The notes beneath the pieces were generated by a model. It was not told the origin of the DNA, searched no databases, and saw nothing but the letters and a program-made list of their open reading frames with translations. Source: a virus (taxonomy: Duplodnaviria > Heunggongvirae > Uroviricota > Caudoviricetes). Taken from it: a stretch of 21,707 nucleotides of DNA. Where the stretch lies: the IMG/VR virus record IMGVR_UViG_2529292922_000023, one strand, 5' to 3'. Made by a program: the position numbers and the translations under genes. Positions 11,676-21,707 of this stretch are shown here, one piece after another (the stretch's first letter is position 1; the number at the start of each line of letters is the position of its first letter).

Positions 11676-13980
<2,305 letters not shown>

Positions 13981-13983
13981 TCA

Positions 13984-14256
13984 TCATTCGTTTTTCATAA
14001 CTGCCGCATTTGTGGCTGTGTGACTTCTACGTAACAAATCAGGGATTGCATCTTCAGGATGGGGATAAAGATCTGGTCTTAACCCATGAGGAGTAACTTT
14101 CCATTCCACAACTTCACATACACGCAAGACGAAACGAGCAGGAATTGTTCTTTTTGAAAACCATTGGTTCACAGCTTGCGGCGTAACGCCTAGATTTCGC
14201 GCTATGGCATTTTGTGCAATTAGCTCACGAAGTGCGTCGTAATCATTTCCTTTCAT
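13984..14256 (-). CDS. cro: Cro-like HTH regulator
   Basis: 90 aa, divergent from the cI-like gene across a 134-bp operator region; HTH segment (RNLGVTPQAVNQWFSKRTIP). Confidence 0.65.
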   Translation of the reverse strand: MKGNDYDALRELIAQNAIARNLGVTPQAVNQWFSKRTIPARFVLRVCEVVEWKVTPHGLRPDLYPHPEDAIPDLLRRSHTATNAAVMKNE

Positions 14257-14390
14257 CGCAACCCACCAATCTAAACTTTATAAATTCAAGATTACATCAA
14301 GTTTAAATTAACATGCAAGTCCACAAAAGATCGAATACACTAAAATCAAGTAAAAATTTATCGAAACCAAGTAACCAGCAAGGATTAACA
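14257..14390. promoter_or_regulatory. OR-like divergent promoter/operator region between cro and cI
   Basis: Candidate pR on the minus strand: TTGCAT (fwd 14313..14318), 16-bp spacer, TGTAAT (fwd 14291..14296); ATCAAGT motif copies at 14296..14302 and inside the 13-mer AAATCAAGTAAAA at 14343..14355, which recurs downstream of cI. Confidence 0.5.
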
Positions 14391-15080
14391 ATGAAAAACT
14401 TAAAGAGCACTGAAAATCGAATTACAAAGCTGCTACAGGAGAAAGGCTGGAGCCAAGCAGAGCTGGCCCGAAAATTAGGTGTCAGCGCACAGTCCGTACA
14501 GTACTGGACAACAGGAAAAACATTTCCAAGGGGAAACCGGCTTGCCCAGTTATCCGAAATAAGTGGTTATCCGCAATCGTGGTTTTTAGGAGAAATCACG
14601 TCACGGCAGTTCTCTTCAAAGGAAAAACATCAAGCAAGAACTGACAGTGTGGTCTTTAACGTGCTCGATGTTGAGTTTAGTTGCGGCGATGGAACACATG
14701 TCCGTGGGGACTTTATCGATGTAGTTCGCTCAATCGAGCTTGATCCTGAATATGCCCGTCGCCTTGTTGGCAATAGAGCATTTCAAAACATAGAGATTGG
14801 TAACGCAAGAGGAGATAGTATGGCTCCAACAATAGCCCCAGGAGATCTTCTTTTTCTCGATAAAACAGTGAATTACTTTGATGGTGATGGCATTTATGCT
14901 TTTTGCTTTGATGGTGAATGCTACGTCAAAAGATTACAAAAGATAGGAAGTAAAATCATGGTGTTATCTGATAACCCAAATTACCAATCCTGGAGCATTG
15001 AAAAAGATGCTCTTGAGCTGCTTTATATCCAATCGAAGGTAATCTCATCTGTTCCATTCAATATAAATAGATTTGGTTAA
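14391..15080 (+). CDS. cI: CI-like repressor (N-terminal HTH, C-terminal S24 LexA-type peptidase domain)
   Basis: HTH (GWSQAELARKLGVSAQSVQYW) plus autocleavage domain with GDSMAPTI (Ser) and KRL (Lys); AGGA RBS before ATG 14391; the ORF-track start 14313 adds an unlikely 26-aa extension. Confidence 0.85.
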   Translation: MKNLKSTENRITKLLQEKGWSQAELARKLGVSAQSVQYWTTGKTFPRGNRLAQLSEISGYPQSWFLGEITSRQFSSKEKHQARTDSVVFNVLDVEFSCGDGTHVRGDFIDVVRSIELDPEYARRLVGNRAFQNIEIGNARGDSMAPTIAPGDLLFLDKTVNYFDGDGIYAFCFDGECYVKRLQKIGSKIMVLSDNPNYQSWSIEKDALELLYIQSKVISSVPFNINRFG

Positions 15081-15098: not shown

Positions 15099-15226
15099 AA
15101 ATTTACAAATCAAGTAAAAGAGACGCAGAAATCAATTTTTTCTTGACAACTCCATCAATCAAGATCTAACATCACACCATCAATTTTGACTTGATTTATT
15201 GTTAATTTTAAATTGATGGTGATTCA
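15099..15226 (+). promoter_or_regulatory. OL/pL-like promoter-operator region downstream of cI
   Basis: Consensus -35 TTGACA (15143..15148) with TAACAT -10 (15167..15172, 18-bp spacer); second candidate TTGACT (15186..15191), 17 bp, TAAATT (15209..15214); operator 13-mer AAATCAAGTAAAA at 15107..15119 and reverse copy ACTTGAT at 15189..15195. Confidence 0.5.
15175..15221. repeat. Perfect 12-bp inverted repeat CACCATCAATTT / AAATTGATGGTG
   Basis: Arms at 15175..15186 and 15210..15221, 23-bp spacer, spanning the second candidate promoter and ending 5 bp before the ATG at 15227. Confidence 0.7.
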
Positions 15227-15655
15227 ATGAAAGATCTGACAACCGCTGAGATATCGAACTTAAACCACTTCGAAAAAGAATCCTTTGCATTAAATATTGC
15301 AAATCTGGTAGGTGCTGCTCGTACTTTCCATTTAATTGATGGTGATCGCTCTAAAGAATTGGGGTTTGAAGTCATGGAGTTTGTTCATGAATACGCCCTG
15401 TCTGCTACTTATCCATTACATAATCACATAATCAACAAACAACCAAATAAAATCCGCACCCAACGCGAAGCCTGCGGCTTAACAACCGCCGAACTCGCCA
15501 GGCTGCTCGATCTCGATGAAGAAATTATCATCCAGTGGGAAAGCGGAGAGTACGAACCAACCATCAGCATGCTTATCCCTCTGGCTAATGTTCTTGGCTG
15601 TGATCCAATGTTGTTATTGACTGATGCTTATAAACAAAATCAGGAGGAAGCATAA
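15227..15655 (+). CDS. HTH (XRE-type, C-terminal) regulator, HigA/Aca-like architecture
   Basis: 142 aa; C-terminal HTH (GLTTAELARLLDLDEEIIIQWESGEYEPTISMLIPLANVLG) with about 80-aa unknown N-terminal domain; first gene after the IR/promoter. Confidence 0.65.
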   Translation: MKDLTTAEISNLNHFEKESFALNIANLVGAARTFHLIDGDRSKELGFEVMEFVHEYALSATYPLHNHIINKQPNKIRTQREACGLTTAELARLLDLDEEIIIQWESGEYEPTISMLIPLANVLGCDPMLLLTDAYKQNQEEA

Positions 15656-15656
15656 G

Positions 15657-15848
15657 ATGAAAATGTTCAAAGGCCTTACCAACGAACCGGAGACAGCTTT
15701 TCATCACATTGCCGTACTGCTTGAAGCGGGGTTAATCATTTCGGCTTCCGGTGATGAAGAATGTGATGAACTTTCGGATGATATCTTTTTACTGGCACAA
15801 CAATACGCCAAAAGCGCATGCGATGCATTTAAGGAGCAAAGAACATGA
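15657..15848 (+). CDS. Small acidic protein (63 aa), unknown function
   Basis: AGGAGG RBS 9 nt before ATG 15657, immediately after the HTH gene stop; acidic composition (DEECDELSDD). Confidence 0.55.
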   Translation: MKMFKGLTNEPETAFHHIAVLLEAGLIISASGDEECDELSDDIFLLAQQYAKSACDAFKEQRT

Positions 15849-16036
15849 TAACTCCATTAAATATTCTTGAGGAAGTGGCGGCACAAATAAAAGAGAATAC
15901 ATCAATGCTTGAATTTATATTTAAGAATTCGCCCGACCAAGGAGAGACAGACGATTATTTATGCTGTCTCATTCGCTCCATGAATAAGACCTGTGAAATG
16001 GCTTACGAGTATATAGAAACACTACGCAACGAATAA
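15845..16036 (+). CDS. Small acidic protein (63 aa), unknown function
   Basis: ATG overlaps the upstream stop (ATGA coupling), AAGGAG RBS; acidic, Cys-containing. Confidence 0.55.
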   Translation: MITPLNILEEVAAQIKENTSMLEFIFKNSPDQGETDDYLCCLIRSMNKTCEMAYEYIETLRNE

Positions 16037-18690: not shown

Positions 18691-18912
18691 ATGAAAATCC
18701 AATACCAGGACTATGGCGCCGTAGCGAACATCGTGATCACCAGTTCCTGCCTGACATTGCAAAAGCATAACCGCGTTGTTGATGCGGTGCTGTTTAATGT
18801 ACAGGGGATCTCTGAAAACCGCAGCGGCTTTTTCTGGGTTAAGTCATCGTTGTCAGGAAAAACACGCGACATCCTGCGCGCCTACAAAATCGTACAGCGG
18901 GAGGCAAAGTGA
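18691..18912 (+). CDS. Hypothetical protein (73 aa)
   Basis: ATG directly follows the upstream stop; operon context. Confidence 0.5.
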   Translation: MKIQYQDYGAVANIVITSSCLTLQKHNRVVDAVLFNVQGISENRSGFFWVKSSLSGKTRDILRAYKIVQREAK

Positions 18913-19007
18913 TGAAGTCATTCCTCCTGTCCATACTGTTTAGTCTGCTGCTGGCGTCCGTCGTTTTCGGTACGCTGATTGAATATAAATTTTTAATGAA
19001 TTACTGA
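18912..19007 (+). CDS. Small hydrophobic peptide (31 aa, single predicted TM helix)
   Basis: ATG overlaps the upstream stop (ATGA); translation MKSFLLSILFSLLLASVVFGTLIEYKFLMNY; not in the ORF track because it is under 60 aa. Confidence 0.35.
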   Translation: MKSFLLSILFSLLLASVVFGTLIEYKFLMNY

Positions 19008-19015
19008 GGTGCGGG

Positions 19016-19170
19016 GTGGGCAAGATCAAAAACCCAGTTGTACTTATCCATAAGCGAGAAAATAGTGACTCCTACGCCGTTACAATCACCTGCGGTAGCC
19101 AGAACTATCACGACGCCGTTCTGATGGCGTCGATGGAACTGGATATGAGTGACGATGATGTCGATACCTA
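19016..19170 (+). CDS. Possible small acidic protein (about 51 aa, GTG start)
   Basis: GAGGTG 5 nt upstream of GTG; acidic C-terminus (ELDMSDDDVDT); same strand as the operon whereas the ORF-track alternatives are antisense. Confidence 0.25.
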
Positions 19171-19189
19171 GAGTAAAACAGGCTATTAC

Positions 19190-19645
19190 ATGGCTGAAGA
19201 AATCGAGCGACTGAAACAAGCACTTTCCGCTGCGGAAAATAATCTGATTGATTCCGAATGCCTCGTAGCTGAATTAAGCAAAGCAAAGGATCACGCATAT
19301 GGGCTGGTCGACACATACGACTGGCAACGTCAGCGTCTCCACGCAGCCGCTGAGAAAGTCCTCAAATGGTGCAGACAAGAAGCTGAACACCGTACCGGCG
19401 ATCCAGAGAAAGCAGAAAACTATGCGTGCGTTAAAGAACTACGCGACGCATTAACTTTTTGCAAAAGTTCTGAAAGCAGCAAGAAGAAAGGCCTGACTAT
19501 CACCCTGCCCGATATCACATCAAAGGCATTCTGGAGCGGTACCGGAAAAAACGCAAAATTCCATCCGGCAACCTATAAACGCTGGGTGAAAGAAGCTATT
19601 AAACGGGATTGTGTTATTGCCGGGATCGGCGTGGAGGTGAAATGA
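19190..19645 (+). CDS. Hypothetical protein (151 aa)
   Basis: Long ORF in operon orientation; weak RBS; no family recognised. Confidence 0.45.
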   Translation: MAEEIERLKQALSAAENNLIDSECLVAELSKAKDHAYGLVDTYDWQRQRLHAAAEKVLKWCRQEAEHRTGDPEKAENYACVKELRDALTFCKSSESSKKKGLTITLPDITSKAFWSGTGKNAKFHPATYKRWVKEAIKRDCVIAGIGVEVK

Positions 19646-19728
19646 TGAATTGGCCTGAAGCATTCACCGCAGTAGGAGTTGCAATAGCGGTGGCATTTAT
19701 TCTGTATTCGCTTTTCCGCTGGGGATAA
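19642..19728 (+). CDS. Small hydrophobic peptide (28 aa, single predicted TM helix)
   Basis: GGAGG RBS; ATG overlaps the upstream stop; translation MMNWPEAFTAVGVAIAVAFILYSLFRWG. Confidence 0.35.
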   Translation: MMNWPEAFTAVGVAIAVAFILYSLFRWG

Positions 19729-19732
19729 AGGA

Positions 19733-19975
19733 ATGTTCGCTCTGATTCAACGTGGTCAGATATACACCGATAGTGCTGGCTACCCGATAAAAATTATTCG
19801 CTGCATAAACAACACTGTGTTGTACAGAAGAATGGATGGGCGAACACAGTCGGTAAAAATAAACGATTTTAATGAACTGTTTGAACGGATCGATCACCAG
19901 GAATACCGACAAATTCTGGCAGAAACAGAGCAGGAAGCTCATCTGAAAAAATTACGAGCCATGAAAAGGAAGTAA
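19733..19975 (+). CDS. Hypothetical protein (80 aa)
   Basis: AAAGGA RBS before ATG 19733. Confidence 0.5.
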   Translation: MFALIQRGQIYTDSAGYPIKIIRCINNTVLYRRMDGRTQSVKINDFNELFERIDHQEYRQILAETEQEAHLKKLRAMKRK

Positions 19976-19978
19976 AGA

Positions 19979-20125
19979 ATGAATAAAGCATTTGAACGAT
20001 GGGTCCACCAGCGTTACGGCAATCGCTATGACCTGACACGAGATGTTGACGGTTTCTACTGTCGTGAAATTGTGAAACGAATGTTTGAAGTGTGGTGCCA
20101 CTGCCGTGGGCTGAGTGTTGTGTGA
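19979..20125 (+). CDS. Small Cys-containing hypothetical protein (48 aa)
   Basis: AAGGAAG RBS 6 nt before ATG 19979; contains WCHCRG. Confidence 0.35.
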   Translation: MNKAFERWVHQRYGNRYDLTRDVDGFYCREIVKRMFEVWCHCRGLSVV

Positions 20126-20132
20126 GGTTGGC

Positions 20133-20387
20133 ATGCAGACAATCATCTATCAGATAACCCCCAGCAAATGGTGTACGGAGAGAGTCCTCATTGCATCAAC
20201 AGGGCTAAAGCCTGGCACCATTGAGCGGGCAAGAAGAAAGTCATGGATGCAGGGAAAAGAATACCGCCATTACGCTGTAGAAGGTGATCCGGGGCACTAC
20301 AGTGAATGCCTGTACAACATCGAAGAAATTATGCGATGGATCGAAAACCAGAAACAACCAGGTGCCAAAAATGCAAGTTCCGGTTAA
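20133..20387 (+). CDS. xis: Excisionase-like protein (position-based)
   Basis: Small basic protein immediately upstream of int on the same strand; GAGG RBS before ATG 20133 (ORF-track start is an upstream GTG). Confidence 0.45.
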   Translation: MQTIIYQITPSKWCTERVLIASTGLKPGTIERARRKSWMQGKEYRHYAVEGDPGHYSECLYNIEEIMRWIENQKQPGAKNASSG

Positions 20388-20420: not shown

Positions 20421-21707
20421 ATGAGTAACGCATCATACCCGACAGGCGTTGAAAACCATGGAGGATCACTCCGTATATGGTTTCACTATAATGGCAAACG
20501 TGTCAGAGAAAACCTCGGTGTTCCTGACACAGCCAAAAACCGGAAGATCGCTGGTGAACTTCGCACTTCCGTTTGTTTTGCAATCAGAATGGGGAGTTTC
20601 GACTACGCCGCGCAGTTCCCTAATTCCCCTAACCTGAAACACTTTGGTCTGGGAAAAAGAGAGATAACCGTTAAGGCACTTTCGGAAAAATGGTTGGACC
20701 TTAAGAAAATTGAGATTTGTGCGAATGCACTTAACCGTTACCAGTCAGTAATTAAAAACATGTTACCAATGTTAGGTGAAAAAAAACTGGTTTCATCCAT
20801 AACAAAAGAGGATTTACTTTTCGTAAGGAGAGATTTGTTGACCGGTTACCAAAAGCTTTCTAATGGAAAGACTTCTTCCATAAAAGGGCGCTCAGTGGTC
20901 ACGGTAAACTACTATATGACAACCATAGCTGGAATGTTTCAATTTGCAACAGATAATGGTTATACCTCAGGAAACCCATTTAACGGTCTGGCTCCCTTAA
21001 AAAAGTCCAAGGTAAAACCAGATCCTCTCACCCGTGACGAATTTATTCGTTTTATTGAGGCTTGCCGTCATCAACAAACAAAAAACCTGTGGATTCTCGC
21101 TGTATACACGGGTATTCGTCACGGGGAGTTGGTATCGCTGGCATGGGAAGATATAGACCTTAAAGCAAGGACTATAACCATCCGTAGAAATTATACAAAA
21201 CTTGGCGAATTCACTCCACCAAAAACCGATGCAGGCACCGGAAGGACAATTCATCTGGTTCAACCAGCTATTGATGCTCTTAAAAGCCAGGCGGAAATGA
21301 CCATGCTTGGAAAGCAACATTCTGTAGAGGTGAAGCAGAGGGAATATGGGAGAACTGCTGTGCATAAATGCACTTTTGTTTTTAGTCCTCAGGTAACAAA
21401 ACAGCAGCAGTTGTCCGGACCTCACTACAAGGTTGACTCCATCAGGGAGTCATGGACAAGTATCTTAAAACGCGCAGGTCTGAGACACAGAAAATCGTAC
21501 CAATCCAGGCATACTTATGCATGCTGGTCACTTGCCGCAGGAGCTAATCCTAGTTTTATCGCAAGCCAGATGGGCCACACAAACGCACAAATGGTATTCA
21601 ATGTTTACGGAGCATGGATGAAAGACAACAATCACGAACAGATAGAACTCCTTAACAAAAGACTATCTGAAAGTGTCCCATGTATGCCCCATAAGAAAGT
21701 TGGGTAA
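20421..21707 (+). CDS. int: Tyrosine site-specific integrase
   Basis: 428 aa; GGAGG RBS; C-terminal catalytic region with R (IRHGELVSLAWEDIDL), H-x-x-R (SRHTYACWSLAAGA) and Tyr (VFNVYGAW) signatures; the stop is the last codon of the window, so attachment-site DNA lies beyond it. Confidence 0.9.
   Translation: MSNASYPTGVENHGGSLRIWFHYNGKRVRENLGVPDTAKNRKIAGELRTSVCFAIRMGSFDYAAQFPNSPNLKHFGLGKREITVKALSEKWLDLKKIEICANALNRYQSVIKNMLPMLGEKKLVSSITKEDLLFVRRDLLTGYQKLSNGKTSSIKGRSVVTVNYYMTTIAGMFQFATDNGYTSGNPFNGLAPLKKSKVKPDPLTRDEFIRFIEACRHQQTKNLWILAVYTGIRHGELVSLAWEDIDLKARTITIRRNYTKLGEFTPPKTDAGTGRTIHLVQPAIDALKSQAEMTMLGKQHSVEVKQREYGRTAVHKCTFVFSPQVTKQQQLSGPHYKVDSIRESWTSILKRAGLRHRKSYQSRHTYACWSLAAGANPSFIASQMGHTNAQMVFNVYGAWMKDNNHEQIELLNKRLSESVPCMPHKKVG

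Follow-up and report, generated by a model that had tools for sequence, protein, structure and literature searches.

The small single-pass membrane regulators MgtS, AcrZ, MgrB, KdpF and CydX of Escherichia coli and SidA of Caulobacter are 27-50 residues long and have one transmembrane (TM) helix with conserved flanks. Proteins of this type are missed by gene callers, and they bind a larger membrane protein. Two open reading frames (ORFs) that resemble them in size, hydrophobic profile and motif-type conservation, here called pep1 and pep2, are found in a stretch of 21,707 nucleotides from a virus of the class Caudoviricetes (IMG/VR record IMGVR_UViG_2529292922_000023); the whole of this stretch is referred to below as the window. 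The two peptides differ from the regulators in being phage-borne and mosaic, and they have no sequence relationship to them. As judged from their sequences, pep1 and pep2 are genuine protein-coding genes, unrelated to each other.

Early-left operons are known to carry host-inhibitory small genes, namely lambda kil, Rac kilR and Qin dicB (PMC11323111). In sequence records their products Kil, KilR and DicB are annotated as septation or FtsZ inhibitors, and the 63-residue YdfD of Qin is annotated as 'lysis protein'. The described mechanism of Kil, KilR and DicB is not known to involve a TM segment. Kil, KilR, DicB and YdfD are comparable to pep1 and pep2 as small accessory genes of the same kind of operon that are expressed on derepression. 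Unlike Kil, KilR and DicB, with their soluble, FtsZ-directed action, pep1 and pep2 encode hydrophobic helices, and they have no family match in Pfam or PHROGs. Two ORFs of 63 and 74 residues at 15624-16036, near the start of the operon, were compared as possible homologues of YdfD and DicB and rejected.

The type I toxins (Hok/Gef, Ibs, Ldr, TisB, ShoB) are also short, hydrophobic and often located in prophages, and the hokW/sokW locus of phage 933W lies ~150 nucleotides downstream of pep2. In contrast to these toxins, pep1 and pep2 are tied into an operon through stop-start overlaps, and no mok-like leader, promoter-like site or family match is found nearby. For an antisense RNA antitoxin, the whole window contains no Rfam family, although a novel antisense RNA would escape Rfam. 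The phage exclusion proteins T4 Imm and Sp, P22 SieA, HK97 gp15 and lambda SieB share with the two peptides an inner-membrane location, predicted in the case of the peptides, and an accessory, dispensable and mosaic character. These proteins are larger, and several of them have two or more helices. They also differ from pep1 and pep2 in that many are expressed from the prophage, and no homology to them is detected with PHROGs or PADLOC.

Reading frames and their conservation

The two genes and their Shine-Dalgarno (SD) sequences are arranged as follows.

18899..18904, + strand: SD sequence GGGAGG of pep1, 7 nucleotides before ATG 18912 and inside the 3' end of the upstream gene
18912..19007, + strand: pep1, 31 residues, MKSFLLSILFSLLLASVVFGTLIEYKFLMNY, from ATG 18912 to TGA 19005-19007
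19633..19637, + strand: SD sequence GGAGG of pep2, 4 nucleotides before ATG 19642 and 7 nucleotides before ATG 19645
19645..19728, + strand: pep2, 27 residues, MNWPEAFTAVGVAIAVAFILYSLFRWG, from ATG 19645 to TAA 19726-19728, with an extra in-frame ATG at 19642

The ATG of pep1 and the stop codon of the upstream gene have one base in common (TGATG). Both ATG codons of pep2 are entangled with the upstream stop codon (ATGATGA): the one at 19642 overlaps it as ATGA, and the one at 19645 shares one base with it. The family alignment identifies 19645 as the conserved start. At the position of the first ATG of the window most relatives have TCA, and GTG is found in four contexts. The pep2 ORF thus exists as originally predicted, but its 28-residue form is probably one codon too long. 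The GGAGG ribosome-binding site assigned to it is present, while the GGGAGG of pep1 had gone unmentioned.

ORF calls, Kyte-Doolittle profiles and grand average of hydropathy (GRAVY) values agree with the original description of two tiny ORFs with one predicted hydrophobic helix each. On the Kyte-Doolittle scale, either peptide has a single hydrophobic stretch of 17-21 residues with charged or aromatic flanks. The GRAVY value of pep1 is 1.38 and its best 17-residue segment, residues 4-20, scores 2.54; its three charged residues, K2 on one side and E24 and K26 on the other, flank the hydrophobic stretch. The corresponding values for pep2 are 1.11 and 2.28 (residues 8-24), and the stretch is flanked by its only two charged residues, E5 and R25. 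The six frames of the window contain four ATG-initiated ORFs of 20-45 residues with a segment score of 2.2 or more. Two of them are pep1 and pep2; the remaining pair lie within genes on the antisense strand. In shuffled sequence the number of such ORFs is 0.4 +/- 0.66.

Loss of frame conservation in relatives had been named beforehand as one of the outcomes that would refute the original prediction, and both frames withstand this test. All 46 distinct DNA variants of pep1 are open and encode 30-33 residues, and all 35 distinct pattern-matched DNA variants of pep2 are open and exactly 84 nucleotides long. The question of a chance origin is settled because every one of these variants stays open in the same length class. 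The family pattern of pep1 is MK..F.LS..F.LLL....G[AST]LIEYKFL, followed by 2-5 variable residues. That of pep2 is M[NTS]WP[ED]A[FIL]..[VL]G...A....[YF][SA].[CF]RW[GRW], in which W3, P4, G11, R25 and W26 are invariant and Y21 (Y or F in the pattern) is also conserved.

Variable sites at the first, second and third codon positions number 20, 13 and 24 of 27 in pep1, and 15, 10 and 22 of 26 in pep2. The ratio of nonsynonymous to synonymous polymorphism (pN/pS), pooled over phylogenetically non-independent sequences, is 0.32 for pep1 and 0.34 for pep2, and the pairwise ratio of substitution rates (dN/dS) between pep2 lineages ranges from 0.09 to 0.74. The constraint is unevenly distributed along pep1: codons 2-19, the hydrophobic core, have a pS of 0.41 and a pN of 0.19, and codons 20-28 (GALIEYKFL) have the same pS and a pN of 0.01. 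In these alignments purifying selection is seen to act on both peptide sequences.

As the original prediction had anticipated, both genes escape routine annotation: PGAP, the NCBI annotation pipeline, omits them in every RefSeq locus inspected. In the record of phage phi467 pep1 is annotated as a hypothetical protein (CUW01254.1; UniRef A0AB38GWP0). In a collection of ~15 billion proteins, the peptide sequences of the window each fall into one small cluster (4 and 6 members), and separately checked variants form further small clusters. The cluster names are 'hypothetical', 'uncharacterised' or, wrongly, 'DUF551 partial'. Queries padded with in-frame upstream residues found only two protein clusters per peptide. 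A phmmer search of pep1 against 1.84 billion representatives gave five proteins, and a longer parent protein appears to be absent because all five are 30-45 residues long. Protein databases thus contain almost no members of the two families.

Neither peptide, nor any of several variants, has a match at E <= 0.01 in Pfam, PHROGs, NCBIfam or PADLOC, and a profile search of PDB sequences gave nothing meaningful. The best match was KdpF (TIGR02115; E = 0.024, 14.7 bits against a cut-off of 26.85), and the DUF883_C glycine zipper (PF19029) reached 13.2 bits against a cut-off of 27. Both candidates were rejected; the similarity is compositional, as between any TM helices. The supplements of the Sakai ribosome profiling (RIBOseq) paper, the Enterobacteriaceae microproteome preprint and the Ribo-RET preprint contain no match to pep1 or pep2, no named small protein of K-12 corresponds to either, and nothing relevant to their motifs is found in the searchable literature.

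Proposed membrane action and alternative explanations

The reading favoured here, with moderate confidence, is that pep1 and pep2 are single-pass inner-membrane microproteins made from the early transcript, which act on a specific partner via their conserved juxtamembrane motifs. For both peptides, translation, membrane insertion, topology, timing of expression and contact with a partner are predictions made from the sequence.

The proposed process can be described in some detail. The early transcript would be translated upon induction of the prophage or upon infection. Ribosomes ending the upstream gene would then reinitiate at the overlapping ATG, aided by the strong SD sequence 7 nucleotides upstream. 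The peptide would insert into the inner membrane as a single helix, oriented by the positive-inside rule. In pep1 the lysine-containing N-terminus is predicted to stay inside, the TM helix to span approximately residues 3-23, and the conserved EYKFL tail to be outside (N-in/C-out). The predicted orientation of pep2 is N-out/C-in, with a short acidic and aromatic N-terminal tail (WPEAF) outside, the TM helix at approximately residues 6-24, and the C-terminal RWG inside. Pep1 would act on its specific membrane partner via G-A-L-I-E-Y-K-F-L, and pep2 on its own via W-P-E-A-F and Y-S-x-[CF]-R-W-G. Because these short motifs are so strongly constrained, a specific partner seems likelier than generic damage to the membrane. 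The role would be a dispensable accessory function in lytic growth. A lytic role is preferred to a role in the lysogen because pep2 occurs in a virulent phage and because neither gene has a private promoter. In line with this, intact copies of pep2 are carried by the virulent phage Av-05 and by many non-mobilizable plasmids of ~90-105 kb.

The geometry of the starts agrees with the original description and is kept in relatives. An upstream ORF of 40 residues or more ends on the ATG of pep2 in 56 of the 66 distinct contexts, and the upstream stop codon overlaps the ATG of pep1 in 66 of 69. An SD-like block (GGAGG, GGGAG or GGGGA) precedes pep2 in 65/66 contexts, and an SD-like purine block is found at the same place ahead of pep1 in 68/69. 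The translational coupling claimed by the original prediction is backed by a conserved stop-start overlap, but not by RNA structure. A hairpin is predicted to pair the SD sequence of pep1 with codons 4-6. Pyrimidine-rich Leu, Phe and Ser codons pair with any SD sequence, however, and a selected SD-masking hairpin was rejected as an explanation: the natural sequences show no more SD occlusion than their synonymous recodings do. The pep2 frame is open for ~13 codons upstream of its start. A programmed -1 frameshift that would join the pep2 helix to the DUF551-type protein encoded upstream was considered and rejected, as there is no slippery site.

Several observations weigh against the reading of pep1 and pep2 as translationally coupled membrane microproteins. 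The RIBOseq survey of strain Sakai, which covers ORFs of 30 residues or more only, lists neither peptide. The topology of both is predicted from hydrophobicity and the positive-inside rule. When each context was set against 200 synonymously recoded controls, the predicted pep1 SD hairpin was no stronger than theirs (mean z 0.14, both families), and this comparison yields no RNA-level support for coupling. A nonsense codon, TAG 19169-19171, lies in the gene upstream of pep2 in the window. Coupling into pep2 would here need reinitiation at ATG 19190, or initiation would depend on the SD sequence alone; the TAG would thus weaken coupling in this prophage. Finally, a few copies of pep2 have decayed. 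Beyond the 35 open variants, decayed pep2 was found at three further loci as two DNA variants. A one-base deletion after ATGAC shifts the frame in phage vB_EcoS-689R5 and in a contig of a metagenome-assembled genome (MAG) labelled Segatella, and codon 3 (W3) is a TAG stop in Shigella phage POCJ13. GenBank annotates the shifted 36-residue frame as a protein. Pep2 is evidently dispensable because of these few decayed copies.

It is possible, though unlikely, that the peptides kill the host or block its division, as the original prediction proposed. On derepression their target would be either the inner membrane, which they would depolarise or perforate, or a membrane component of the divisome, which they would block. 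Their size and hydrophobicity would fit such a role, in which they are likened to the type I toxins Hok, Ibs and TisB, to YdfD of Qin and to SidA of Caulobacter. Early-left operons do carry inhibitory small genes, including kil, kilR, dicB and the ydfD 'lysis protein', and in 10 contexts pep2 lies ~150 nucleotides upstream of a hok/mok locus. The family searches nevertheless lend this role no support: in Pfam, PHROGs, NCBIfam and PADLOC there is no likeness to Kil, KilR, DicB or any other division inhibitor, nor to any toxin family. The window contains neither an antisense RNA family known to Rfam nor a private promoter or leader for the two genes. Kil, KilR and DicB act on FtsZ. The constraint is strongest on the short juxtamembrane motifs and weaker on the hydrophobic core, a pattern that points to a specific contact. 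A genome can tolerate as many as 7 copies, although this would also be allowed by repression in the lysogenic state.

An interference with other phages or with host defence has an equally low probability. The peptides would block the entry of superinfecting DNA, in the manner of T4 Imm, P22 SieA and HK97 gp15, or neutralise a membrane-associated host defence. Such a function would suit accessory, mosaic and often exchanged genes of the early 'ea' region, several copies of which are found per genome and whose carriers (temperate phages, a virulent phage and plasmid-borne elements) infect the same hosts. However, there is no match in PADLOC or to the exclusion families of PHROGs, and no promoter is found for expression from a repressed prophage, whereas lysogens do express the classical exclusion genes. 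The case for this function is purely contextual.

The uneven constraint along pep1 might have another origin, which is considerably less likely than either of these functions. Residues 1-20 would be a Sec signal peptide that is cut after the invariant Gly20, releasing the 10-13 residues of ALIEYKFL... to the periplasm. The MK of the n-region is followed by a hydrophobic stretch of ~15 residues, and the -3/-1 rule fits all variants (V, A or I at -3 and the invariant G at -1). Secreted peptides typically have a frozen mature part and a faster-evolving signal part, and the pN values given above differ ~20-fold between the putative mature and signal parts at equal pS. On the other hand, the residues ahead of the site include neither a polar c-region nor a helix breaker, and the hydrophobic run reaches Ile23, a span of 21 residues that is enough for a stable anchor. 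ALIEYKFL is itself hydrophobic, and the neighbours are variable, with no linked gene for a receptor-like partner. It is slightly less likely still that ALIEYKFL(MNY) is a periplasmic phage effector or signal in early infection, as a Gram-negative counterpart of peptide-based phage communication.

The least probable explanation is that pep1 and pep2 are functionless, either as spacer frames that pass ribosomes on or as chance ORFs in DNA conserved for other reasons: each fills a would-be gap of ~90-100 nucleotides in a tightly coupled operon, stops 4-8 nucleotides before the next start and is occasionally decayed (pep2), but this is effectively excluded by conservation at the level of the amino acids themselves (W3, P4, G11, R25 and W26 of pep2, GALIEYKFL of pep1), as well as by the concentration of variation at third codon positions, by at least 17 pep2 contexts in which the next ORF is ~150 nucleotides or more away and 6 in which none follows, and by the lack of an Rfam family or an unusually stable fold.

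Distribution and exchange of the two genes

DNA similar to pep2 is present in 1573 of 5426 complete E. coli genomes (~29%), at 2985 places and in up to seven copies per genome. A tblastn search found pep2 in 99 phage records, among them 933W, VT1- and VT2-Sakai, BP-4795, YYZ-2008, ArgO145 and several Stx1a/Stx2a-converting phages, and a pattern scan of IMG/VR found it at no fewer than 488 loci. It is also found in 180 plasmids (154 from Escherichia, 25 from Salmonella and 1 from Klebsiella), mostly 90-105 kb in size and non-mobilizable. These are probably phage-plasmids. Such plasmids, for example pAVS0068-B, which has an intact copy of pep2, carry Ea22/DUF551 genes. The virulent phage Av-05 is a myovirus of the Vequintavirinae, and its pep2 is located among small genes of the Ea type. 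A species-dereplicated genome scan with narrow pep2 patterns gave four Escherichia/Shigella loci and two short contigs; the latter, one bearing the label of a Segatella copri MAG and the other that of Xanthomonas pisi, look like contaminants.

Pep1, searched for at the DNA level and by pattern, is rarer but taxonomically wider. Among isolated phages it is present in phi467 and one other only. Its region is matched in 63 complete E. coli genomes, and the pattern scan of IMG/VR gave 77 loci. The family spans prophages of the Enterobacteriaceae, because annotations of the neighbouring proteins come from Citrobacter, Enterobacter, Klebsiella, Salmonella and E. coli. Both families are absent from lambda and from the K-12 prophages Rac, Qin, DLP12 and e14, all of which were scanned. 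On the - strand of lambda, at ~30930-31008, there is a 27-residue hydrophobic ATG-initiated ORF, MTTTECIFLAAGFIFCVLMLADMGLVQ, which lies out of frame inside orf61; it is unrelated to pep1 and pep2 and probably arose by chance.

The genes next to pep1 and pep2 vary greatly. Pep2 is preceded by 4 unrelated clusters of proteins, mostly of the DUF551/Ea22 type, and followed by 11, of which DUF4222 (38 contexts) is the commonest; hok/mok follows in 10. Upstream of pep1 there are 5 unrelated protein clusters, one of them being the phrog_1001 gene, and downstream of it there are 8. The DNA homology of the window to JLK-2012 and other phages starts exactly at the SD sequence of pep2 (19633-19636), so the moving unit consists of the SD sequence and the ORF. 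As these comparisons show, pep1 and pep2 each travel as an independent mini-module among accessory early genes. The breakpoints at the SD and stop-start joints are as expected if the joints act as recombination linkers between modules.

Unrelated genes upstream of pep2 end in a near-identical sequence of 16 nucleotides, GGAGGTGAATCAATGA or GGAGGTGAAATGATGA (19633-19645 and relatives). A similar junction, GGGGTGAAATGATGAAG, precedes one subfamily of pep1.

Pep2 is thus a strongly constrained gene of 27 residues that is present in more than a quarter of the complete E. coli genomes and in medically important Shiga toxin (Stx) phages. Both peptides are suited to small-protein work: their starts are defined, their conserved motifs are open to mutation, and knockouts as well as many variants exist in nature. 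Lambdoid early regions have recurrent gaps that appear intergenic, and annotation rules covering the two peptides would fill such gaps; a phenotype, if any is found, would place them among the few known phage-encoded membrane microproteins.

The early-left operon of the window

This region is 99.9% identical to a prophage adjoining yecE in the E. coli isolate F719 and 98.4% identical to phage phi467. From ~15.2 kb to the end of the window, the + strand is a single tightly packed array of genes that runs from the repressor side to xis-int. The features that surround pep1 and pep2 are the following.

13984-14256, - strand: Cro/YdaS-like ORF, divergent from the repressor gene (Pfam scan)
14313..15080, + strand: cI-type repressor with a helix-turn-helix (HTH) domain and an S24 peptidase domain (PF00717, E = 9e-17; PF01381), which marks the immunity region
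15143..15172, + strand: candidate early-left (pL-type) promoter TTGACA-18-TAACAT (10/12 matches in a consensus scan), placed by position only
18691..18912, + strand: 73-residue gene phrog_1001 upstream of pep1, ending with TGA 18910-18912
19016..19645, + strand: interrupted phrog_492-like gene between pep1 and pep2, whose stop codon TGA 19643-19645 overlaps the pep2 start
19733..19975, + strand: DUF4222 gene, 4 nucleotides past the pep2 stop codon (PF13973, E = 3.6e-16)
20115-20387, + strand: excisionase (DUF1233; PF06806, E = 2.5e-29), in the distal part of the array
20421-21707, + strand: tyrosine integrase, at the distal end of the array

The layout of this array, as read from its gene content, matches a lambdoid early-left operon. 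The candidate promoter lies in the interval that separates the repressor gene from the operon's first gene, and a promoter and terminator scan gave no convincing internal terminator or promoter in the array. The placement of the two peptides in such an operon, made in the original prediction, is borne out by this order, which begins with a cI-like repressor and a pL-like promoter and ends with xis-int.

The TAG at 19169-19171 splits the phrog_492-like gene into ORFs of 51 and 151 residues. In phi467 the counterpart is an intact coding sequence of 209 residues with TGG in place of TAG. In the near-identical F719 prophage PGAP labels the 3' part of the split gene a pseudogene.

A third conserved small gene in this stretch is an ORF of 48 residues at 19979-20125 (phrog_3871, E = 4e-35), located between the DUF4222 gene and xis and overlapping the longest xis ORF by 11 nucleotides. 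Its product is non-hydrophobic, and it is annotated by PGAP.

On the - strand, at 11895-13696, a 340-residue ORF with an rve integrase core and an HTH domain (a transposase) and a neighbouring 260-residue ORF lie just past the Cro-like gene and an 82-residue gene of the rightward operon. This segment looks like an insertion sequence that breaks the early-right region, and the prophage may therefore be defective.

The integrase ORF of the window, 428 residues long, has the same length and position as int of JLK-2012. The xis and int genes are unlike those of the otherwise 99.9% identical F719 prophage, where int encodes 437 residues, which places a mosaic joint somewhere after position 20000.

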